Virus record (IMG/VR): IMGVR_UViG_3300035661_000046
Span: 1 to 64,000 of that record
Direction: 5' to 3' (one strand)
Origin: a virus
Taxonomy: Duplodnaviria; Heunggongvirae; Uroviricota; Caudoviricetes
DNA: 64,000 nucleotides
Position numbers and translations under genes: made by a program. The notes beneath the pieces were generated by a model, which worked only from the letters and a program-made list of their open reading frames with translations, did not search any database and had not been told where the DNA came from. Below, piece by piece: positions 2,283-63,534 of the stretch. Within the stretch, counting starts at the first letter, position 1. The number at the start of each line of letters is the position of its first letter.

Positions 2283-2533
2283 AAATACTATTACTAGCCA
2301 TTCTTTTAACCTTGTCAGGCTGTGCTACAGTTCCTTCTCCTCCAGCAGAAGTAAAGGTGTTAGTACCAGTTCCTTGTGAGATTAAACCAATAGATAAACC
2401 TGCAATGCCTATGGATTCCATTCAGGTTTCTGACGACTTGTTTACTAAAGTTAAAGCGGCTCTTTCTGAGATTGAAACTAGAAAAGGATATGAGCTTAAA
2501 CTAGAGACTGCGGTGAAATCATGTCAGCCTTAA
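2279..2533 (+). CDS. putative o-spanin (Rz1-like outer-membrane lipoprotein)
   Basis: 84 aa with signal peptide MKILLLAILLTLSGC carrying a lipobox (L-S-G-C) and a proline-rich mature part (PSPPAEVKVLVPVPCE). Classic spanin pair architecture with the previous ORF. Confidence 0.55.
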   Translation: MKILLLAILLTLSGCATVPSPPAEVKVLVPVPCEIKPIDKPAMPMDSIQVSDDLFTKVKAALSEIETRKGYELKLETAVKSCQP

Positions 2534-2823
2534 TAGCCAGAGCTAATATAGACATAGGTGTGGGTGTATGTCCCTGCCATACCTCACCTGTATCGTATAC
2601 AACTATGTTTATAACTGGAGCTAGTACCGTTACTCTAGATGGGCAACCTATGGCAATAGTAGGTAGTATAGGTATTTCCAGCTGCGGACACGCAACTACT
2701 GCTCTGACAGGTAGTCCTATAAGCACAGCTAATGGGCAACCTATTCACAGAGTAGGGGATACTGGAAGTAACTGCGGAGCCTATACCGTTCTAACTGGTT
2801 CCTCTAATTCGGGTTCAAACTAA
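2521..2823 (+). CDS. hypothetical protein (Gly/Ser/Thr-rich)
   Basis: 100-aa ORF immediately downstream; coding call only. Confidence 0.35.
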   Translation: MSALIARANIDIGVGVCPCHTSPVSYTTMFITGASTVTLDGQPMAIVGSIGISSCGHATTALTGSPISTANGQPIHRVGDTGSNCGAYTVLTGSSNSGSN

Positions 2824-3492
2824 ATGGCAGTTAACGCAGCTTCAGTAATAAGCACAACGCTAAACACGTTTAGACCAGACATTTATACAGCTATAACTAC
2901 GATGGAAAACTTGTGCTATACAAGTCCGGATACAACCTCTGGTATATCTGCTGCCGATGCCGTGACGTTCTTTAAATCTGAGTTTACTCTACTTAATAAT
3001 GCATTAGTAGCATGGATGACTTCTAACCGACAGTCTAGTCTGAGTGACTTTATTCCTACTATATATTCATACTTAGTGATGATACAAGTGCAAGGTGTCT
3101 CAAATGCATCAGAAGCCTCTGTAGATGCTAGAAACGTATTTACCTGTAATGGGTACCTTCCATACATTCTAACGAAACCAGTGAGCTATTATAACCATAT
3201 AACCCTAGTTCAGACTCCTGCTCCTAACACCCCTACTTCAACTATATTTAACACAGACATAACTACAATAAACGGGGGGTTGACTGCGGAGACTAATACT
3301 ATATCTAGCGTATCTACTAATTGCAGAGGTATAGTTTCTGGACAGATTAATAAGTCTTTATTCCAAGACGTTCCTGTAACAGGTACTACTAGTAAATCTT
3401 TAATGGCTACTACTGTATTCACCACACATCACTATAAAGAAATATACGTCGGACTTAATGTAGGAAGCTTAACTCTACCTCCAGGAGTCTAA
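2824..3492 (+). CDS. hypothetical Thr/Ser-rich protein (possibly structural)
   Basis: 222-aa ORF that starts at the stop of the previous ORF. Last + strand gene before the strand switch. Confidence 0.45.
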   Translation: MAVNAASVISTTLNTFRPDIYTAITTMENLCYTSPDTTSGISAADAVTFFKSEFTLLNNALVAWMTSNRQSSLSDFIPTIYSYLVMIQVQGVSNASEASVDARNVFTCNGYLPYILTKPVSYYNHITLVQTPAPNTPTSTIFNTDITTINGGLTAETNTISSVSTNCRGIVSGQINKSLFQDVPVTGTTSKSLMATTVFTTHHYKEIYVGLNVGSLTLPPGV

Positions 3493-3532
3493 AAAAGAGG
3501 GGTAGTATACTCCACCCTTCTTTTCTTTATTA
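3493..3532. terminator. putative bidirectional terminator at the convergent gene junction
   Basis: Imperfect hairpin aagaggggtagtatactccacccttctt flanked by an A-run upstream and a T-run downstream. It lies where the + block meets the minus block. Confidence 0.3.
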
Positions 3533-3742
3533 CTTCCTCTTAACGTCTGAGTCTGTAACCTTTACTTCTCGGTCTCGGCATTCAACTTCGAATACTTTGA
3601 TTTCATTCAGAATCTTTTTCCTTCTTATAAGTCCTCTGCGGTATAGGCCAGTACCTGTGTTCTTTTCAAATACCTGATTAACCAAGGCTACTTTCTCCTC
3701 CTCGGTACCGTGCTCGATAACCTGTTTTCTCGTAGTAATCAT
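3530..3742 (-). CDS. hypothetical protein
   Basis: 70-aa ORF; first gene of the minus block. Confidence 0.4.
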   Translation of the reverse strand: MITTRKQVIEHGTEEEKVALVNQVFEKNTGTGLYRRGLIRRKKILNEIKVFEVECRDREVKVTDSDVKRK

Positions 3743-3743
3743 T

Positions 3744-4049
3744 TTATCCTCCTTTTTTTATAGCTTTAGATAAATCAGCTAATTCAAGTAAAGAACCTAT
3801 TACTGTCTCAATAGAGCTAGGAGAAGTTTTAGGTTCTTTATTCTCTATAATAGACAGTACAGCACTGATGGTAGTTTCAGCTCCAGTCAAACTTAACTCC
3901 CCTGCTAGTAAAGGGTGAGTTAAGTTTACCTTATATAGGCCTTCCGAAATCAGCTCTGGCTCAGACACAGTAAGAGATGCTAGTACTACTACTTTCTTTT
4001 CGTTCATAATATTTCCTTTATATGGTTGAGGGGAGATGATTCTCCCCAT
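3744..4049 (-). CDS. hypothetical protein
   Basis: 101-aa ORF, tightly packed with its neighbours. Confidence 0.4.
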   Translation of the reverse strand: MGRIISPQPYKGNIMNEKKVVVLASLTVSEPELISEGLYKVNLTHPLLAGELSLTGAETTISAVLSIIENKEPKTSPSSIETVIGSLLELADLSKAIKKGG

Positions 4050-4073
4050 ATGTATCTTATACCCTAGAATGGC

Positions 4074-4796
4074 CTAGTTATTCAGGTCTAGAGTAAAAGA
4101 TTCATTGAAAGCAGTACCCTCGTTGTACTTACGCTTTCCTTTAGGATTAGATAATACTCTGGTTGAACCAACGTAGTAATCTACGGGAGTGTGTGTATGA
4201 CCGTGCATCCAAAGTAAAGGTTTATACTTTCTCATAAGCCATTCTAAATCAGTGTGGTAAAAGATGTTACCAGGTTCATCTTTAAACTTATCATCTACTC
4301 CTTTAAAGGAGGGAGAGAAATGAGACATAATAACATTTACGGAATCTGGTCCTAAGGCAGTTAACGCGTTCTCCAAAAACTCAACAGCTAATCTATGCTC
4401 TTCAATCCACTCATCTATAGTTACTCCTCCAGCACAAAGAGTCTCCATGTTGCTACGAGGGGAATTTTCTATAGTAGAGATATCAGACCATAACGTTGTG
4501 CCGATGTAGTTTATTCCTCGTATAGTTACGAACTCATTATGTAGTAGGTGTAAGTTAGTGTCTTTGAATCTATCCTTGTACTCAGCTACTCTACTCTCTA
4601 CGGATCCTTCTTTATGCATGAACTCATGATTACCCATAATACCTAAAGTTTGTATAGGTAAATACTTATACGCATCCCAGTGGTGTGGGTAGTCAGAGAC
4701 ATCCCCTAGTAGTAATAGTAGGTCACCTACGGGCTCTAAACTACCATCCTTATTCACATCCTCATGTAAATCTGAGGCTAGTTGTACTATAGACAT
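4074..4796 (-). CDS. calcineurin-like metallophosphoesterase
   Basis: Motifs D-L-H-E-D near the N-terminus, GDVSD, GNHEF and GHTHTP match the metallophosphatase signature (GDxHG...GDxxD...GNHE...GH). Confidence 0.6.
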   Translation of the reverse strand: MSIVQLASDLHEDVNKDGSLEPVGDLLLLLGDVSDYPHHWDAYKYLPIQTLGIMGNHEFMHKEGSVESRVAEYKDRFKDTNLHLLHNEFVTIRGINYIGTTLWSDISTIENSPRSNMETLCAGGVTIDEWIEEHRLAVEFLENALTALGPDSVNVIMSHFSPSFKGVDDKFKDEPGNIFYHTDLEWLMRKYKPLLWMHGHTHTPVDYYVGSTRVLSNPKGKRKYNEGTAFNESFTLDLNN

Positions 4797-11585: not shown

Positions 11586-11876
11586 TTAATTAGTCAATTC
11601 AGATAAAGGCTCAATAAAATGACGGCACTTTTTAGAGTTGTTAGTCTGTAGACTTGTAGCTAATACAGGCTCTCCTCCCATCTCTAATAGGGATATTTTA
11701 CCTCTCCAAGATTGAGTTACTGGACTCATTTCACTCTGTATTAGAGTTACAAACTTTTTCATCTGAATCGACGTTTCCTCTGACGTTCCTGATATAATCT
11801 TCAACTCTACCCTGGTTGGAGTGATAGTTAATCTATTCCGTACGCCGGAAGTCTCTACCATAGTTATTTCATTCAT
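11586..11876 (-). CDS. hypothetical protein
   Basis: 96-aa ORF. Confidence 0.4.
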   Translation of the reverse strand: MNEITMVETSGVRNRLTITPTRVELKIISGTSEETSIQMKKFVTLIQSEMSPVTQSWRGKISLLEMGGEPVLATSLQTNNSKKCRHFIEPLSELTN

Positions 11877-12080
11877 TTTACATCACCTTATAAAGAACCA
11901 TACATGTTATCATTCCGATAGCTAATCCTATTCCTAGGTTAGTCAAACCGGTACCTATACTATCTAAACCTTCAACTATTCCCATAGCTATGCTATCTGC
12001 TGAGTAAGTTATGTGGTCTTCTATAACTTCAGTCTCTCTGTCGTCCAATTTACGTTCCTTTAATTAGTTAATAAAAATAA

Positions 12081-27795: not shown

Positions 27796-29199
27796 CTAGA
27801 AGATAATGGAACTATTTTTCCTAACCGCATCAAAAGAGACACTCTTAACGAAACCTGGACGGTATACCTGAGTAAGCATATCCCTACCTCGGTTCTTCCC
27901 GGGTGTGATTCTATCACTATAGAAGCCAATACGATCATCCAAGAAAGTAGAAACTATTCCTCGTTTAGATGCCTTACCAGGATCAGTTTTAGGATCCTTG
28001 TACACATCTACTTCTACCCCATTCACGGTTACACTAGAGCATTTCATAGCCCACTTGAAGGTATCACGGTCTAAACGCTGCAGCAAGGCTCCGCCCATAC
28101 CAAAGGCTATATTATCAATAGAGAACATCTCTTTCAGCATCGCAGTTAAGATTTCTTCGATAGAGTCCATATTAACACCATCTCCTTGAATAATACGCAC
28201 GTTATTAAGTACCTTATAACCCTTAGAGTTTATGGTGTACCCGAATGACTTCTGTAAAGAGCGCAAGCAATACATAACCATGCTCTTTGGATTTCCTGAG
28301 TCGGGACGAAGTACTACTGTAGCACCAGAGTCAATAACCTCTTGTTTTAAATCACGACCCCAGATGACGTCTACTGCGTTATACATGTCGTAGGCATCTA
28401 CTACTACAGCAAAGTAAGCCCCAGGAACACCAAACTGCTTAATCATGTTAGAATAAGCTGCCTGCTCATAAGGCCGACCCCAGCTTGTTATAGTCGAGTG
28501 CTCTGCTGCAGGAATACTACCGGAAACAAAACCTTTAGCGTCATAGTTTCTGCGAAGCCAAGGTGTTGCTGCAATAGTATCAGAACCCATGAAGTTAACT
28601 AAGTGTGCTGCACCACCAACCTGGGATGTTTCATAGGATGAACAACCGCGACTTCCGAAGTCATGTAACTTGAAATTAATCTGACTGTCAGGATCATCAC
28701 TAGAAATAACAAGCCCGCGATAAATCATATCTTTAATCGTCTTACTTACTGTAGAGACAGTGCTGCCATACCAGATAGCTCGTAGTATCTGAGTTTCATA
28801 ATGGCCTGGTGCCCAGAATACTTTAGGGTCGATAGAATCTATACGAGCTACTGGCAAGTTAATAGGTACGTTAATACCTTCTTCTATAGCATGTATAGAA
28901 ATAGGTGCAAAACCACCATGCTCTTTAACAATGTATTCCCAAGCATCCTTCTTGAAAGGTACACCTTGCATTGCAAATTCTTCTGCAGCTTCCTCTACGT
29001 TGTCGAGCGTCGCTGGAGTAGAGAGATACTCCTTGATGTAACCTTGAAGACCAAACATTTGAGTCTTGTAAACACCTTGGATGGTTGAGCCTCGAGCTTC
29101 TACATAGGAACTCATGCTCGTTGTCCCTTTAGGGAACTGGTCTGGGTGACTTGGTTTATAGCTATCCGTATCCAAGATTGGATTGTAAGTTTGTTTCAT
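27796..29199 (-). CDS. nadV: nicotinamide phosphoribosyltransferase (NAMPT/NadV)
   Basis: N-terminus MKQTYNPILDTDSYKPSH is the hallmark of NadV/NAMPT (NPIL.TDSYK.SH). 467 aa is typical for the family. Confidence 0.85.
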   Translation of the reverse strand: MKQTYNPILDTDSYKPSHPDQFPKGTTSMSSYVEARGSTIQGVYKTQMFGLQGYIKEYLSTPATLDNVEEAAEEFAMQGVPFKKDAWEYIVKEHGGFAPISIHAIEEGINVPINLPVARIDSIDPKVFWAPGHYETQILRAIWYGSTVSTVSKTIKDMIYRGLVISSDDPDSQINFKLHDFGSRGCSSYETSQVGGAAHLVNFMGSDTIAATPWLRRNYDAKGFVSGSIPAAEHSTITSWGRPYEQAAYSNMIKQFGVPGAYFAVVVDAYDMYNAVDVIWGRDLKQEVIDSGATVVLRPDSGNPKSMVMYCLRSLQKSFGYTINSKGYKVLNNVRIIQGDGVNMDSIEEILTAMLKEMFSIDNIAFGMGGALLQRLDRDTFKWAMKCSSVTVNGVEVDVYKDPKTDPGKASKRGIVSTFLDDRIGFYSDRITPGKNRGRDMLTQVYRPGFVKSVSFDAVRKNSSIIF

Positions 29200-29211
29200 A
29201 TTATAGAACCC

Positions 29212-30267
29212 CTATAAAAAGTAATTGATGATATGAAGGTGATCTTCATAAAATTTGTGACTTAATTCTGGCAAAGCTGAGAATGGAACCCAGAATGCCT
29301 TCTTTGCATCGTCGCTACCTTTAACCTTGGGTAGCCCAGGAGTTAGGTCAGAGCCATCTAACCTAAATAAGAACGCATGAGTAATAGTTCTACCTCTAGA
29401 AGATCGGCCTGGAGAATCGAATACTTTAGAATCTCCTTTATTGGCATGATCTAGAACAGGTAGAGGGACTTTTAAACGAGTCTCCTCTCTTAACTCACGT
29501 AAAGCACAAGAGTATAACGTTTCGTTAGGATCAATGAAGCCCCCAGGTAAGGCATACAGTCCTTTGCCGGGAAATCCTCCTCGCTCTATTAAAAGAACAT
29601 GGCCATTCTTTATTACTACTGCGTCTGTTGTTACAAAGATTGGAGTATGTGGAGAACCTGCCCAAGCTTCTTTATATTCTCTAATAAAGGAGTCTTCTTC
29701 AAGCAGTAGATAGTACTCTTCTGAAAAAGCAAACTCTCTTAGAAAAGCTTCTGTACCCGTAGGTACTCTACTATAAACCGCAGCCTCACGCATTTTAGAA
29801 AGAGTATTTTCGTTAAAATACATACTCCGTAAAAGGCTGGCATTTATATCACCTGCTAGGCTACCAACTTCAACGTGAGGCCCCCATTGAGGGAATTCTA
29901 GTAAATATCCTGTATCTTCTTTTAGATGGCCTATTAGTTTTGGATTCTTAGCCTCAAGCAGTGAAACTACGTCGTTAACCTCCTCTTGGACTGATTCCAA
30001 CCATCGGTTGTTGGCATACAGGTAATCCTTTACTGCAACAAAGAATACTCTACTAGCAGAGTCCGGATCTAGAGAGCTAGTTATCATATTGATTCGCTCT
30101 TCATCACTAAAGGGATTTTTTAGACTCCTAGAGGACCTAGAGGACCCTAATACTATTATCACCTTGTCTGCTATATTCAGGGCCTCAAGCATAGTCGCCA
30201 TATGACCATTATGAAAGATCTGAAATCTTCCGATCATTATTAAAACTTCGTGTTTCTTATTTGACAT
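29212..30267 (-). CDS. natV: bifunctional NMN adenylyltransferase / Nudix hydrolase (NadM-Nudix, NatV-like)
   Basis: The N-terminal nucleotidyltransferase carries H-x-G-H (GRFQIFHNGH). The C-terminal Nudix box is GGFIDPNETLYSCALRELREETRL. Directly downstream of nadV, as in vibriophage KVP40. Confidence 0.8.
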   Translation of the reverse strand: MSNKKHEVLIMIGRFQIFHNGHMATMLEALNIADKVIIVLGSSRSSRSLKNPFSDEERINMITSSLDPDSASRVFFVAVKDYLYANNRWLESVQEEVNDVVSLLEAKNPKLIGHLKEDTGYLLEFPQWGPHVEVGSLAGDINASLLRSMYFNENTLSKMREAAVYSRVPTGTEAFLREFAFSEEYYLLLEEDSFIREYKEAWAGSPHTPIFVTTDAVVIKNGHVLLIERGGFPGKGLYALPGGFIDPNETLYSCALRELREETRLKVPLPVLDHANKGDSKVFDSPGRSSRGRTITHAFLFRLDGSDLTPGLPKVKGSDDAKKAFWVPFSALPELSHKFYEDHLHIINYFL

Positions 30268-31724: not shown

Positions 31725-31990
31725 TATTCATACCCCGTTATTTCACGAAGTTCATAACCAGGATCACCCTCCTCGAAAGTAGGAGCAGTAGCCTTAGCTG
31801 TGTTAGTTACGTATAACCAACGTGCAGTACGTGTACTTTGTAAAGCACAACCCTCTACGGTTGCAGGAATAAAATTACAATTACCGCACCCACACTTTCT
31901 AGTTCTGAGAAACTTCTTATTATTAGCCAAATCCTCAAAATACTCTAGAGGGTACAAGCTATCTGTAAAGTCTTCTACTTCTTGTTCCAT
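31724..31990 (-). CDS. small Cys-rich (zinc-binding) protein
   Basis: CGCGNC...C motif; 88 aa. Overlaps the start of the RuvC-like gene. Confidence 0.4.
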   Translation of the reverse strand: MEQEVEDFTDSLYPLEYFEDLANNKKFLRTRKCGCGNCNFIPATVEGCALQSTRTARWLYVTNTAKATAPTFEEGDPGYELREITGYE

Positions 31991-32563
31991 TATCTATTTC
32001 CTATTTTATTTATCATTGTTAATAAATCTTCTTGCGAAGAACCCCGATGTACTACTACCAAGTCTCCCCAGTTTGGCCCTATCTCTGCTTCAACTCCAAT
32101 TGGTAGGTCTAGCCAGTCAAAGGTTTCAACAGGGTAGTCTTCCATGTAATAGAAGGCTGTCTCTAGGACTTCAGCTGCGTGTTGTAGAGGACATTCTATT
32201 TCAATTGAGTCATAGACGGTACAGATGCACTTTGCACCAAACTTCTTTATAGCGTTATTTAAAGCTGTAAACACCACCAACCCTAATGTCGACGATGTAG
32301 ACTGTACCCTAACATTCTGAGAATTTCTTAATGCAGCATTATACACTGCAGTCTTCTTATACATTGGCAAAGTACCAAACTCCATCTTACGCTGTGCAAA
32401 AGGAGTATACACAAACTGGTTGTGCTTTGCCATTGCATGTGCATCTTCTACATATTTCTTAATAAGAGGGTATGTATCGAAGTACATGTTAATTAAAGTC
32501 TGAGCTTCTTCTTTAGAGATTCCCAGGTTCATTGCGACTCCTGCTACAGAGGAGCCGTATAAG
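31990..32563 (-). CDS. family A DNA polymerase, polymerase subunit, exon 2 (C-terminal part incl. motif C)
   Basis: GSSVAGVAMNLGISKEEAQTLINMYFDTYP corresponds to Pol I [37 protein letters not shown] is the motif C (HDE) region. The frame is open upstream of the tracked Met back to the predicted 3' splice site at 32563. Confidence 0.7.
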
Positions 32564-32827
32564 CACTTAGTCTACTACTTTCGTAATAGAGTGGACTATA
32601 CCATTACCCTTTTCTAAAACACGCTTTTACGAGGGTATTCGCCGTATTATACCTAGTTAAAGGTATCGCAGCAAGATCTGTTCTAGATCTTCTGTCAGTC
32701 TCTGAACCATTTATACCAATCCCTTGGTATTCTGGCTGCTGATTGCCATACCTAGTATCTAGGGTTAGGGTTCCAGCAATTGAGCGAATTTTTAATACAG
32801 CATTACTACCGTATGGCACCTAAGTTA
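32564..32827 (-). mobile_element. group I intron (ORF-less, 264 nt) in the DNA polymerase gene
   Basis: It interrupts Pol A between motif B and the following helix. Predicted P1: exon ggcaU paired with intron GUGCC (U-G at the splice site). The intron starts taacttag and ends ...ctaagtG. It shares four conserved blocks with the rtcB intron, including a P7-like AUAGUCC element. Confidence 0.65.
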
Positions 32828-33783
32828 ATGCCGAATGTTAACGCTTTTGCTGCTTGTCTATAACCCTTATACTCCTTATATAAGGGATGTCCGGGATTAT
32901 CGACGATAGAGATAAACTCATCGTAGTCTAACCTTCGCATTGCACTAGCCGAGAAGGAGTGGAAATCCTTACCTTCTTCAATAGCCTTAAGTAAAGTAGG
33001 ATCCTTACATAGCGCTCCTAGAATCTTTACTTCGGCACTAGAGAAGTCTAAAGCAATAAACACATTGCCATCTGCTACCTTAAAGCATCTACGTACATTA
33101 TACCCATGCTTAGGTCTAGGTAACTGAGTTAAGTTAGGGTTATCACCAGTTATACGGAAACTACTAGTTCCGTGTAGGTTATAAGAAGGATGTACTCTAC
33201 CATCAGGCTTAACGTGGTCTTCTACGTAAGTCTTAATAAAAGTACGGTGAGCACTAGCAATGTCATTGCGTTTTGCTATATCTGCCAAGTAAGGGATTCT
33301 AGCAGATTTAACCAAGGCGGCTAATGCATCACCATCAGTAGAAGGAGATCCTGTCTTAGTTAAGAAAGGTGGAGTCAATCCTAACTCTCCGTATAAGAAA
33401 TCGCCTAGTGCAGCTCCAGAGTCTAAGTCTACCGGATGACCAATCGCAGTAAAAATAGAATGTTCCAAAGAAGCAATCTCTGCTTCCATTTGACGATTCA
33501 TTTGTCTATTAAGCTCGATGTCATACTCAATGCCATTGAGTTCTAAGTCACAGATAAACTCAAAAGCTGGCATTTCGTATTTGCGTATTGCTTCTAGTAT
33601 AGAAGGAATCTTACCCTTTGTTAATTTCCCATGAGTAGAAGTTACATACAGGGGTTGCTCAATAATTCTGGGAAAAGTAGCAGCCAGTATTTCTGAGGTT
33701 GTAATGCAGTCTATACCCGCGTACAGTAGCAAGTCTTCAACTGGATAATCTTCATATGTGTTATATATCGGTTTTTGTTCCAT
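32828..33783 (-). CDS. family A DNA polymerase, polymerase subunit, exon 1 (palm/fingers incl. motifs A and B)
   Basis: Motif A ALDFSSAEVKIL (DYSQIELR-like) and motif B RQAAKALTFGI(LYG). The tracked ORF reads into the intron and stops after ...FGINLGAIR. Confidence 0.7.
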
Positions 33784-34123
33784 TGGCTTTTTTATGCTCC
33801 TGTACTATTTCCTGAAACCTATCTAAAATTAAAGCGTCTCTAGTAGCCAAGTTGCTTAGCTCATTTTCCAACTCAGAAAGCATCTCTTCGGTATCTTCAG
33901 CTAAACCCATTAAAGTAGGCTCCATAAATCTAAGAGTATCTAGCTGAGCTTTAATACCACTAGCCTGAGCTAGGATATGTGCACTCTCCACTATGATGTT
34001 CTCTGCTTCTCTACTACCCAAGCTTTTTACTAAAGCAAGGATTACTTCATGAGGATCAATATCATCTTCTCCTGCTGTTACCTCTACTGCGTCCTCTACT
34101 TCTACTGGTTTAAACTTACTCAT
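33761..34123 (-). CDS. hypothetical acidic protein lying between the exonuclease and polymerase genes
   Basis: 120 aa; ATGA-type overlap with the exo gene stop, and a 23-nt overlap with the pol start. Confidence 0.45.
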   Translation of the reverse strand: MSKFKPVEVEDAVEVTAGEDDIDPHEVILALVKSLGSREAENIIVESAHILAQASGIKAQLDTLRFMEPTLMGLAEDTEEMLSELENELSNLATRDALILDRFQEIVQEHKKANGTKTDI

Positions 34124-35366
34124 CTATCTCATCCTCACTTTCATTATTATTAACTAACTTAGTTAATTTTGGTAGTTTATCTTCATAACCCCCAAGACCT
34201 GTATGTGGTATCCAATCCCATACAGCTCGTTTAAGACCATAGTTCTTATTAAGTCCAGAGTTTATGTTATGAAGAATTAGCATCGTGTCGAACACGATTC
34301 CTTGTATTCTAACACCGGTACAGCACATAGTGTATAAAACATCAAACTTTATGTTATGCCCGACTTTCTTAATGTCAGGGTTTAGTAGAATCTTTGCAAT
34401 ATATTCCCAGGCTATGTGTGGATGGAACCACGTATTTTCTCTATGCCACAGAGGTATTACTAAAGCTTCAATATACCCCTCTGCCGTTCTATACCCAAAC
34501 TGAGCAGTTATTATCTTTGCTGAGTTAGAGAAAGGATCTAGGCCGGTAGTTTCTAAGTCGAAGCTTATTACAGAAGTACTAGGCAGGTTTGAAAGAATAT
34601 TAGTGAAGGTAACTACCTCACTTATAGATCTGGCTATTTTGATATGTTTAGAATACCTCTCTAACGCATCTGCCAGTTTAGGAACCACCAGAGCTCCTCT
34701 AGCTAGCCTACTAGCCTTCTCGAAGTCCCGATCTATCACTTCTAAGAAATCCGTCCCCCACATCTGTCCTGATGAGTTCTGACGTATCATAGTAGTTACT
34801 TTAGGATGCAAAGTGATTACCACGTTAGAGACAAAGTCATTACTGTGTATTTCTCCTCGGTTAGCCGTGTTACTCACTGTACTAAACCCAAGTTCCTTAG
34901 TCACCGCCGTGGTTAGACTTATTATTACTTTTGGGTTAGCCCTACGTATCTCTTCTAGTAAGTACGGGGCACATCTTCTAAGCACTGTCTGAGCGGGGGC
35001 TTTACCCTTGTTTATATCTAAGCCTTTTATCTCGCACTTAGTCAAGTTAGTAGTACGGTAAGAAAGCTTTGAAAAATGCTTAATAGCTAAGTAGTTAATA
35101 ATGTTACTGTGGATTTGGTTTATTTCATCTCCCGTGTAGAAACCCTCAGTAAAGGCTCGGTGATCCTGTATTATTAAGATGTCTACGGGAGTGTGATTGA
35201 GAAGTACTAGGTCAGGAGTTTTACATTTCAGTGTACACACTTTGTTACAGTAGCTAGTAGAGATCTGAGAGAAATCCTCTTTCTGAATTATTGCTGATTT
35301 TACCGCAGGAGTTATCTTAGGTCTGTTGTATAAATCTGATAAAGGTAAATCTATTAATTTTGCCAT
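34116..35366 (-). CDS. 3'-5' proofreading exonuclease protein (DnaQ-like domain of a split family A polymerase)
   Basis: Exo I VISFDLETTGLDP, Exo II GHNIKFDVLY and a YxxxD-like region near the C-terminus. It is encoded as a separate ORF from the polymerase domain. Confidence 0.65.
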   Translation of the reverse strand: MAKLIDLPLSDLYNRPKITPAVKSAIIQKEDFSQISTSYCNKVCTLKCKTPDLVLLNHTPVDILIIQDHRAFTEGFYTGDEINQIHSNIINYLAIKHFSKLSYRTTNLTKCEIKGLDINKGKAPAQTVLRRCAPYLLEEIRRANPKVIISLTTAVTKELGFSTVSNTANRGEIHSNDFVSNVVITLHPKVTTMIRQNSSGQMWGTDFLEVIDRDFEKASRLARGALVVPKLADALERYSKHIKIARSISEVVTFTNILSNLPSTSVISFDLETTGLDPFSNSAKIITAQFGYRTAEGYIEALVIPLWHRENTWFHPHIAWEYIAKILLNPDIKKVGHNIKFDVLYTMCCTGVRIQGIVFDTMLILHNINSGLNKNYGLKRAVWDWIPHTGLGGYEDKLPKLTKLVNNNESEDEIDE

Positions 35367-35489: not shown

Positions 35490-36090
35490 AGAGTTATGAC
35501 TACTTGCACTGTAATTTTGTCCAGCCTGGACATGGCATGTCCCATCTAGAAAACACTTTGTCCACCTGTTTTCTTAATCAAATCATAGACTTACCTCACT
35601 TCTGGACAAAAAGACACGTGGACATTCAAAACAATATAACAAGTATTAAAAATAAGAATATCACTATAAGAATATTTCAAGGACAAAAGACAATCAGACA
35701 TTCAAAATATAAGCTACTTTGTGGAGAATGAAATACCACTATGAATTATGAATTATTGTTAACACCCTCTCTTATATATATAAATATACTTTTTAATTAA
35801 CTATATATATAAGGGATGGCTTTTTAGCCCAAAACAAATTTTTATGGCTAGAATATATTTCTCACAAAGTGTCTTATATTTTGAATGTCTGGTTGTCTTT
35901 TGTCTTGAAATATTTTTTATAGTGATATTCTTTTTTTTAATACTTGTTATATTGTTTTGAATGTCCACGTGTCTTTTTGTCCAGAAGTGAGGTAAGTCTA
36001 TGATTTGATTAAGAAAACAGGTGGACAAAGTGTCTTTTCGATGGGACATGGCATGTCCAGGCTGGACAAAATTATGCCTTTTTCTTTATA
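35490..36090. repeat. ~600-bp palindrome: ~215-bp inverted-repeat arms (over 90% identical) flanking a ~150-bp AT-rich core; candidate replication origin
   Basis: Arm 35505-35720 is the reverse complement of 35865-36085 (tttgtccagcctggacatg.catgtccca ... cagacattcaaaatataag). The arms carry repeated TGTCCA/TGGACA and GACATTCAAAA motifs. The core has nested TATATATA palindromes. It lies between the polymerase and primase-helicase genes. Confidence 0.7.
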
Positions 36091-62051: not shown

Positions 62052-63012
62052 CTATCCTTTTACGCACATCACTTGTTTTAGAGTATGAAGCACTGTTACT
62101 AAGTCATCCTGATTACTCATTACTGTCTCAATATCTTTATATGCCCCGGGAGTTTCATCTATTACACTTTCGTCTTTCCTACATTCAACACCTGCTGTAG
62201 CTAGCTTGTGATCCTCTATGGTAAATGTAGCTCTAGCTTTTGCACGGCTCATTGCCCGTCCAGCTCCATGAGAGCAAGAGCAGAAGGAGTCTATATTACC
62301 CTTACCTTCTACTATATAAGATCTAGTCCCCATGCTGCCTGGAATTATACCTAAGTCCCCATTACGAGCGCGTACTGCACCTTTACGAGTTATCCATAAA
62401 TTCCTACCAAAGTGATTTTCCTTAGCTACGTAATTATGATGACAATTAATAGCCTCTTTGGTTACTGTGAACTCCTTAGGAATGTGTCTGGATATTGCAG
62501 CTAATACTGAAGCCAGCATTGCCTTTCTATTCTCTAAAGCGTAGTCTTGAGCCCAATGAACAGCCTCGATATAATCATTGAAGTCCTCGTCCCCTTCTGG
62601 TAAGTAAGCTAGATCACCATCTGGTAAGTTGATGTAATACATCTCCATCTTCTTCTTGGCCTTCTCAATGAAGTAATTCCCAATCATATTACCGATACCT
62701 CTGGAGCCAGAGTGTAACATCACCCATACAGAGTCTACTTCATCCAGACAAATTTCTATGAAGTGGTTACCTGAACCCAAGGTACCCAATTGACGACTAG
62801 CCTTACCGATACCATCCCTGGCTATATCTGGATGTTTACCTAGAATTGGTCCTAAGTCTTGCAATAGAGAAAATCCTTGATAGTCTTTATGAGAACCACC
62901 TGTCCCCATAGGTATGTCTCGTTCTATTTGTTTACGAATTGTTTCTAATGAATCTGGTAGGTCGGCCGCAGTTAAACTTAGGCGTACTGCTACCATTCCA
63001 CATCCTAAATCG
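62052..63012 (-). CDS. rtcB: RtcB RNA ligase (3'-phosphate/5'-OH), exon 2
   Basis: In frame upstream of the tracked Met the sequence reads DLGCGMVAVRLSLTAADLPDSLETIRKQIE, matching E. coli RtcB DIGCGMNALRTALTAEDLPENLAELRQAIE. Later conserved blocks include MLHSGSRGIGN and CSCSHGAGR. Confidence 0.8.
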
Positions 63013-63316
63013 CGTTATTCCATTATTTCTAATGGCGTGGACTATACCATCTCTAAGGTCACTGAGTTTTATAGTCTCTACCTTAGGCTCGCCGTGTTAA
63101 TACTACACCTACCATACTTATATGAAGTATACCGTATTCCTAAATGAAAGGTAAGCAGGTAGGGTGTAGTATTCTGCACAAGTGTCTATAAAACACAGTG
63201 CAAGTCTCTGAACCATTTGACAATATCACTACTGCCTCTGGCTGCTGATTGCCCTCGACTATACGTTAGGGTTTCCAGCAATTGAGCGAGTTTTAAAGGG
63301 GCCGATTTTTTAGTTA
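63013..63316 (-). mobile_element. group I intron (ORF-less, ~304 nt) in rtcB, homologous to the DNA polymerase intron
   Basis: It separates ...IIPAAVGV from DLGCGM... (the two are contiguous in RtcB homologs). Predicted P1: exon aggggU paired with intron GCCCCU (U-G at the splice site). The intron starts taactaaaaaatcg and ends in G. It shares the blocks gtggactatacca, gtctctgaaccattt, ctggctgctgattgcc and agggtt.ccagcaattgagcga with the pol intron. Confidence 0.65.
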
Positions 63317-63534
63317 ACCCCTACTGCTGCCGGTATTATAGCTTTATCCGTAGCTATAACTGTTCCAATAGTACTTCCCTTACCTCCGTGAACGTCAGGC
63401 ATAACTGATACTTGTTTGTAGATAAAAGGAAGCCTGGACAAATTCTTAAGCTGAGTTAAAGCTTCATCTTCTATAGTATCTGTCCAGATTTTTATTGGTT
63501 TACCACCGTCTACTATTACTTGTTTAATACTCAT
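63317..63534 (-). CDS. rtcB: RtcB RNA ligase, exon 1
   Basis: LPFIYKQVSVMPDVHGGKGSTIGTVIATDKAIIPAAVGV aligns with E. coli RtcB MPFIFKHIAVMPDVHLGKGSTIGSVIPTKGAIIPAAVGV. Confidence 0.8.

Follow-up and report, generated by a model that had tools for sequence, protein, structure and literature searches.

Does a phage that carries the two halves of a family A DNA polymerase in separate reading frames have one polymerase gene or two? The question is raised by positions 1 to 64,000 of the IMG/VR record IMGVR_UViG_3300035661_000046, a virus of the class Caudoviricetes; this whole stretch of 64,000 nucleotides is referred to below as the window. Two neighbouring open reading frames (ORFs) on its minus strand each hold part of such an enzyme: ORF 32806..33783 (325 aa) holds motif A (DFSSAEVKIL) and terminates in ...RQAAKALTFGINLGAIR*, and ORF 31990..32532 (180 aa) begins with MNLGISKEEAQ and holds TVYDSIEIE, i.e. 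motif C. Upstream of the initial Met (32532) of the second ORF the reading frame is open and reads LYGSSVAGVA. We consider it very probable that both ORFs belong, as exons, to a single family A polymerase gene, split by a 264-nt, ORF-less group I intron, which is assigned to the IA type because the hairpins P7.1 and P7.2 are present. The predicted parts of the gene, and the evidence on which each of them is based, are as follows (a slash within a sequence marks a splice junction throughout).

32828..33783, minus strand: PolA exon 1, 956 nt (ORF list, sequence, Pfam DNA_pol_A profile positions 4-217)
32564..32827, minus strand: group I intron, 264 nt (Rfam RF00028, RNAalifold and pair counts, z-score of the minimum free energy (MFE))
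31990..32563, minus strand: PolA exon 2, 574 nt including the stop codon (Pfam DNA_pol_A profile positions 229-381)

Exon 1 comprises the N-terminal part of the polymerase domain, motif A and RQAAKALTFG plus two nucleotides of an Ile codon, its 3' end being GGCAU. The first base of exon 2, a C, is the third base of that Ile codon; it is followed by LYGSSVAGVAMNLGISKEEAQ... and the exon further includes motif C (TVYDSIEIE) and the C-terminus. Joining U32828 to C32563, with removal of 264 nt, yields a product of 509 aa that reads ...TFGILYGSSVAGVAMNLGISKEEAQ; at the level of the RNA, the ligation of ...GGCAU to CUUAUACGGC... results in the protein sequence ...RQAAKALTFGILYGSSVAGVAMNLGISKEEAQ... 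The predicted junction segment of the spliced polymerase is RQAAKALTFGILYGSS, the predicted junction-spanning peptide is ALTFGILYGSSVAGVAMNLGISK and the predicted ligated-exon junction is GGCAUCUUAUAC (GGCAU/CUUAUAC). By the O-helix numbering of E. coli Pol I (R754, K758, F762, Y766), the intron lies after base 2 of the codon that we take to be equivalent to 764.

The spliced product behaves as one intact enzyme in every comparison. Against Pfam DNA_pol_A (PF00476) it yields a single match that covers profile positions 4-381 of 381 with 221.7 bits; the unspliced ORFs yield two, of 121.1 bits (4-217) and 73.3 bits (229-381), with profile positions 218-228 uncovered. Aligned to the large fragment of Taq polymerase, for which solved structures are available, it scores E = 1.5e-48 without a gap at the junction (RRAAKTINFGVLYGMS versus RQAAKALTFGILYGSS). 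Likewise, ten uninterrupted homologues from IMG/VR (L003-L012, 52-62% identity) share the pattern RQxAKxxTF[GS][IL]LYGS... without any insertion or deletion relative to the spliced product; the motif B segment of L003 is RQNAKALTFGILYGSSVNGIA and the intron-less site in polymerase genes of the L003 type reads TTCGGNAT^HYTNTAYGG. Motif B, i.e. the O-helix, of the spliced product is RQAAKALTFGILYG, and membership of family A is borne out by a full-length domain match that contains the motifs A, B and C. The preliminary description of this DNA, made from the letters alone, had already assigned motif A and the start of motif B, up to the ending NLGAIR, to the first ORF and the motif C region (VYDSIEIE) to the second, had noticed the open frame upstream of the Met, and had proposed the junction between U32828 and C32563 as the one that restores motif B. 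The ORF list, the sequence, the continuous Pfam match (the alignment to a PolA profile having been among the checks it suggested) and the gapless alignments to Taq and the ten homologues agree with it on all of these points.

The motif C of this polymerase (32194..32214, minus strand) deviates from the canonical (V)HDE: it reads TVYDS(I/V)E, in which the catalytic Asp is retained, with Tyr in place of His and Ser in place of Glu. The variant is common to the window and all 12 homologues of its clade (L001-L012), including those of the cultured phages Arash and D69 that are discussed below. The sequence of the locus is 100% identical in two separate assemblies (JGI 3300035182 and Logan SRR11723145), and since a megablast of the locus against the INPHARED phages returned no match, the phage is not a deposited isolate.

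Explanations that do without splicing fare poorly. With an intron length of 3 x 88 nt, both exons lie in the same genomic frame; as this shared frame contains 11 stop codons inside the intron, neither a programmed frameshift nor read-through is an option. An intein is ruled out as well, since the frame in between is not open and the segment contains a ribozyme. The two ORFs might also give rise to two separate chains (325 and 180 aa) that assemble without splicing, the second being translated from the ATG at 32532. That ATG has a Shine-Dalgarno-like AGGAG 5 nt upstream, and the exonuclease domain of the polymerase is already encoded by a separate gene. Nevertheless, we hold this explanation to be next to impossible: ten residues of motif B (LYGSSVAGVA), with the invariant Tyr of the O-helix, would be absent from both fragments, the first fragment would end in the non-homologous tail NLGAIR, the homologues are uninterrupted here, the Met itself lacks conservation, the AGGAG is part of the codons for Ala-Gly-Val in the conserved frame, and a complete ribozyme occupies exactly the gap.

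That ribozyme was recovered in an Rfam scan of the whole window, equivalent to the cmsearch with Intron_gpI that had been suggested beforehand. Intron_gpI (RF00028) matched at 32572..32837 (minus strand) over its full length (model positions 1-253 of 253), with 67.9 bits and E = 4.2e-15, where the curated gathering score is 50 bits. In the Rfam alignment P3, P4, P5, P6, P7, P8 and P9 are present, and the insertion between P7 and P3' corresponds to two extra hairpins, P7.1 and P7.2. The intron RNA has an MFE of -83.5 kcal/mol (z = -3.94 versus dinucleotide shuffles; 0 of 200 shuffles were as stable), and the MFE fold recovers P2, P3, P4, P5, P6, P6a, P7.1, P7.2, P8 and P9. The elements of the intron are:

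32828..32832, minus strand: exon strand of P1, GGCAU, whose U32828 is the U of the U·G wobble marking the 5' splice site
32815..32819, minus strand: internal guide sequence GUGCC, the 3' strand of P1 (sequence, Rfam alignment, pair counts)
32564, minus strand: final base of the intron, G (omega G)
Helices P1 to P4: P1 GGCAUu:gGUGCC; P2 AUACGG:CUGUAU; P3 AUUCGCU:GGCGAAU; P4 UGCUGG:UCAGCA
Helices P5 to P7: P5/P5a CCUAG:CUAGG; P6 GCCA:UGGU; P6a AUACCAA:UUGGUAU; P7 G(A)GACU:AGUCC
Helices P7.1 to P9.0: P7.1, 10 bp; P7.2 AUACCU:AGGUAU; P8 CCCU..AGGG; P9.0 ACU:AGU
Helix P9: CUAUUAC:GUAGUAG with a GAAA loop

The comparison of related introns, most of which are described further below, lends strong support to this fold. 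Five introns were aligned (MAFFT) after excision of the endonuclease loops and evaluated by RNAalifold and pair counts; one of them, from contig L017, is misaligned in P1, and its P1 (UUCGGU:GCCGAA) was checked by eye. RNAalifold predicted 70 pairs, 30 of them with compensatory changes. With the P7 pseudoknot and P9.0 added, the structure comprises 73 pairs in 13 helices, and 95.7% of the pair cells of the five introns are paired, as compared with 32-38% in a control in which the partners were slid by 1-3 columns. Double-sided changes occur at 32 pairs (3-11 when slid), and the observed values were matched by 0 of 500 shuffles. The compensatory changes span P1, P2, P6a, P7, P7.1, P7.2, P9 and P9.0. 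For instance, the P7 pair 140/318 changes from GC to AU in contig L104, and the P1 column pair 6/23 is CG, UA, GC or GU at the introns that share the insertion site, so that the guide shifts along with the exon. In P7.1 (10 bp) 8 of 11 pairs covary, and in P7.2 (5-6 bp) two pairs do. The three pairs of P9.0, immediately 5' of the terminal G, covary as well (CG/GC/UA and UA/AU/CG/GC), which fixes the 3' splice site at G32564; this is also the only G in the 3' tail that yields an in-frame junction, the alternative that was checked being G32566. The fold, P1, the terminal G and the restoration of the reading frame and of motif B are thereby established in silico. The preliminary description had the P1 pairing at these exact coordinates, the terminal G and the length of 264 nt right; only its statement that a 71-aa ORF (32604..32819) spans the 5' splice junction turned out to be wrong, as is detailed below.

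Some observations weigh against the reading of the locus as a single gene spliced by an IA-type intron at these positions. Splicing and catalysis in vivo, and also the route by which the intron was acquired, are what we infer from the sequence. P7.1 and P7.2 are linked here by a single G (or CG), whereas phage IA2 introns have GUA as the linker (PMC3428280), and an assignment to subgroup IA2 is not secure. P10 is weak, with just two contiguous pairs, and CUAAGU (32565..32571) is fully complementary to ACUUAG in loop L1 (32820..32826), a pairing that competes with P9.0. Finally, the protein by itself does not separate the junction AU/C from AUU/UUA: both encode Ile-Leu, and the choice hence depends on the terminal-G rule and P9.0 alone.

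The last point leaves room for a group I intron with both splice sites displaced by one base (5' after U32827, 3' after C32563, giving AUU/UUA). U32827 is able to pair with a G and would thereby extend P1 (columns 9/20), and because the protein product is identical, protein alignments do not bear on the choice. Such an intron would, however, have C as its last base, where a G is universally conserved, the covariation of P9.0 puts G32564 directly after the helix, and a G is found at the corresponding position in all of the same-site introns of contigs L104, L072 and L098 (its intron B) and of the published phages PR1 and PM135. The shifted sites are therefore extremely unlikely, and splicing between U32828 and C32563 is the reading retained here. 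As regards the pairing of CUAAGU with L1, a 7-bp analogue (AUCUAUA:UAUAGAU) is present in L072, and no clear counterpart is seen in L104 or in intron B of L098.

Another possibility is that the intron is a decayed, non-splicing relic, and the polymerase a pseudogene or one that has been replaced by another polymerase elsewhere in the genome. Splicing is predicted from the sequence, and only 64 kb of the genome is visible; moreover, the loss or original absence of an endonuclease gene fits a phase of the decay cycle that mobile introns usually undergo. On the other hand, the core helices are all intact with canonical pairs, the Rfam score exceeds the threshold, both exons are free of stops and frameshifts, have kept the catalytic motifs and are 52-62% identical over their full length to intact homologues, and the neighbouring replication genes (exonuclease, primase-helicase) are intact. 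We therefore regard decay as very unlikely and favour a functional intron in a functional polymerase gene.

If the intron is indeed active, splicing would proceed as follows. The intron would fold in the transcript, with exon GGCAU and guide GUGCC forming P1, and a free guanosine bound in P7 would attack the bond 3' of U32828. G32564, placed by the 3-bp P9.0 and the short P10, would then occupy the same site, upon which the freed 3'-OH of U32828 would be ligated to C32563. The ligated mRNA (GGC AUC UUA UAC GGC) would be translated into the 509-aa polymerase domain with its O-helix intact (RQAAKALTFGILYG), whereas translation of the unspliced RNA would terminate seven codons into the intron and produce an inactive fragment.

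The intron does not encode an endonuclease. The only ORF within it is:

32604..32819, minus strand: mechanical ORF of 71 aa, wholly intronic, which starts with a GTG in the guide sequence and runs through the catalytic core; not a gene

Since the GTG is situated 8 nt into the intron, the ORF is wholly intronic and does not reach the 5' splice junction. It has no Pfam match and no similarity to the endonucleases of related introns, and it was rejected as a gene on these grounds; the intron can be called ORF-less, as had been proposed. When the LAGLIDADG, HNH and small ORFs found in related introns were used as tblastn queries, no homologue was returned in the 64-kb window (best E = 0.17). A free-standing cognate endonuclease (collaborative homing) was likewise considered and set aside, as homologues of the same-site endonucleases were not found in the window, where unrelated endonuclease families were not searched exhaustively. 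The intron thus lacks the endonuclease gene that characterizes a homing intron, which implies that it is not mobile on its own. It would have arisen by loss of an endonuclease gene, or else represent the form from which the endonuclease-bearing introns of this site descend, and it might spread within and between genomes by reverse splicing or by means of endonucleases supplied in trans by co-infecting phages.

It is also not the only group I intron in this genome, in line with the preliminary description, which had counted it as the second. The other one interrupts rtcB:

63013..63316, minus strand: rtcB group I intron, 304 nt (Rfam 49.8 bits, gathering score 50; E = 1e-9)

It separates exon 1 (63534..63317) from exon 2 (63012..62052, minus strand), has GGGGU:GCCCC as P1, and its removal gives a 392-aa RtcB that reads ...AIIPAAVGVDLGCGM. 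With about 74% identity to the polymerase intron it represents a paralogue within the same genome. In L126 and L115 this motif of rtcB is likewise occupied by related introns.

The P4-P6 core sequence of the polymerase intron was encountered in more than 119 IMG/VR contigs using a loose pattern search, and an exact 29-mer from P7/P7.1 had no match in IMG/VR. In the contigs closest to the window intron it is again the polymerase gene that is interrupted, and in the same place:

L104 (IMGVR_UViG_3300019776_000919), first intron: same codon position (aguaU/...cuG/cuuauacgga), 257 nt, no gene
L072: same position as in the window, ~1.1 kb, LAGLIDADG endonuclease in the P8 loop
L098 (IMGVR_UViG_3300035311_000122), intron B: same position (codon 764), 1101 nt, the P8 loop encoding a LAGLIDADG endonuclease
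L017: inserted 2 nt upstream, where codons Gly763 and 764 meet, 229 nt, no gene
L030: 2 nt upstream, at the Gly763/764 codon boundary, HNH endonuclease

The first intron of L104 is orthologous to that of the window, i.e. it is an ORF-less intron at the same site with ~76% identity, in a polymerase that is 54-58% identical. L104 differs from the window in having a second group I intron in motif C (11780..12078; Rfam 78.5 bits), at the Val codon before YDS and near site 881 of phages PhiI and W31. In L098 (4594..3149) two group I introns reside in motif B of one gene, separated by a mini-exon of 12 nt (CACAUUCGGGAU); intron A, at codon 760, is 333 nt long and scores 84.7 bits with Rfam, and the doubly spliced product reads RQAAKAITFGILYGSGPSK. 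In all cases the guide matches its own exon: GGCAU:GUGCC in the window, GUAU:GUAC in L104, GGGAU:GUCCC in L072, GGGAU:GUUCC in intron B of L098, UUCGGU:GCCGAA in L017 and UUUGGU:GCCAAA in L030. Together with the introns of published phages that are treated below, at least four insertion positions are found within 14 nt of the O-helix segment:

Codon 760: L098 intron A
Codon 762: Arash, D69
Boundary of codons 763/764: L017, L030
Codon 764: window, L104, L072, L098 intron B, PR1, PM135

The clustering of insertion sites in the O-helix is a modest lead. That this segment is a landing hot-spot for introns, and that the window intron may spread without an endonuclease of its own, are to us tentative ideas that are rather more doubtful than probable. 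A Pfam scan of the peptides whose coding sequences directly precede the shared core in viral contigs identified DNA_pol_A (7), Photo_RC, i.e. psbA (7), several capsid families, RtcB (2), ribonucleotide reductases (2) and dUTPase (1); the scan comprised 64 non-redundant peptides out of 86, near-duplicates having been dropped by hand, and the counts are indicative only. The variety of these upstream exons implies that the intron family is promiscuous.

The polymerase gene is part of a replication module. The exonuclease domain of the polymerase is encoded upstream by a separate gene, fused to a UDG-like domain and not part of the intron:

34116..35366, minus strand: gene for the 3'-5' exonuclease domain of the polymerase (Pfam DNA_pol_A_exo1 3.1e-12, UDG 1.5e-5)

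Between this gene and the one for the polymerase domain lies a 120-aa ORF of unassigned function (33761..34123, minus strand) that overlaps both, and the same layout of exonuclease, 120-aa ORF and polymerase is encountered in Vibrio phage D69. An inverted repeat (35512..35723 / 35863..36074; 212 nt, 93% complementary, 139-nt spacer) is situated in the non-coding interval that separates the exonuclease gene from the primase-helicase gene; its arms constitute the mechanical ORFs 35504..35731 (plus strand) and 35801..36049 (minus strand); the repeat may be a replication origin or a regulatory palindrome. Genes for NAD salvage (27796..30267, minus strand) adjoin the module, namely a nicotinamide phosphoribosyltransferase (NAMPT; Pfam NAPRTase and NAMPT_N) and, as judged by eye, a NadR-like adenylyltransferase-Nudix protein. 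Salmonella phage Arash likewise has a NAMPT gene beside its polymerase gene, so this gene order is conserved.

How does the intron compare with those of known phages? By polymerase, the closest cultured relatives are Arash (51.7%) and the Vibrio phages D69, D181 and D148 (46.5%), and in all four the polymerase match is in two pieces. In two of these phages the interruption was delimited:

Arash (OQ632216): intron at L001 3945..4215, 271 nt, Rfam 58.9 bits
Vibrio phage D69 (OZ195729): intron at L002 ~3915..4429, ~515 nt, 45.3 bits, E = 3e-10

Like the window intron, these are group I introns by Rfam, located in the same motif B segment of a polymerase of the same lineage (46-52% amino acid identity). 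They differ from it in being inserted 6 nt upstream, after base 2 of the Phe762 codon (accuU/...G/cgg), in having another guide sequence, and in belonging to a different peripheral lineage (~60% identity); in addition, the D69 intron has a small Cys-rich ORF in P6, of which Arash retains the first codons as a remnant. In GenBank the split gene of Arash is labelled 'DNA polymerase nu', hypothetical protein and 'DNA polymerase theta', the intron is not annotated, and the word intron is absent from the paper describing Arash.

Two T5-like phages were identified when deposited phages were searched with the window intron by sensitive blastn:

Providencia phage vB_PreS_PR1 (KY363465): intron at L134 ~2449..3564
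Proteus phage PM135 (MG030347): intron in L135

Here the insertion position is identical (...FGI/LYG, within SFGI/LYGSGPSK, the codon equivalent to 764), the core is homologous (82% and 72% identity, blastn over the core), P1 is of the same design, with a guide that fits the exon of the respective gene, and both introns begin with UAAC. In contrast to the window intron they are ~1.1 kb long and contain a gene for a 261-aa LAGLIDADG protein, by analogy with L072 and intron B of L098 in the P8 loop, and their host polymerases are only ~25% identical to that of the window. The GenBank records list two 'DNA polymerase' coding sequences and a hypothetical protein, again with the intron unannotated. 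The polymerase genes of four published genomes (Arash, D69, PR1 and PM135) thus contain group I introns that have not been annotated.

The value of these observations is mainly one of annotation: the polymerases of the window phage, Arash, D69, PR1 and PM135 should each be described as one spliced gene, where current records have two 'polymerases' (nu and theta in Arash) and a hypothetical protein. As the intron is situated two codons after residue 762, mis-split PolA genes distort phylogenies as well as the typing by position 762 in surveys of the virioplankton.

Group I introns in family A polymerase genes of phages have been known since that of SPO1, in 1990. A single publication names three insertion sites in phage PolA, 674 (SPO1, SP82, Bastille, Pf-WMP3), 676 (phiL7) and 881 (PhiI, W31), and the introns at these sites are all of subgroup IA2 and all carry HNH endonucleases (PMC3428280). 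A survey from 2025 found nearly half of the polymerase genes of Bastillevirinae to be split, some of them by two or three introns (PMC11878797). The window intron resembles the SPO1-type introns in being a predicted self-splicing intron of IA type with P7.1 and P7.2 in a highly conserved segment of PolA; it differs in position, i.e. codon 764 in motif B (the O-helix) as opposed to 674, 676 and 881 (PMC3428280), and in the lack of an HNH gene. The same intron core family is also located at positions of the 674/676/881 type in the IMG/VR contigs L108 and L019. With the introns of T4 td, nrdB and sunY and of cyanophage psbA the window intron shares the ribozyme class and the location in conserved codons of essential phage genes, whereas the host genes are different ones, the comparison of relatedness covering the conserved core; the P4-P6 core sequence of the window intron was also found upstream of psbA-type (Photo_RC) exons in viral contigs. 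The polymerase intron is accordingly a further case of a well-known class in phage polymerase genes and does not raise a new mechanistic question. It adds the O-helix to the intron sites of PolA and is one representative of an intron core family that extends across PolA, rtcB, psbA, capsid and ribonucleotide reductase genes of uncultivated phages, and its counterparts in PR1, PM135 and the IMG/VR contigs indicate that the motif B site is not a new phenomenon but a common and under-annotated one.

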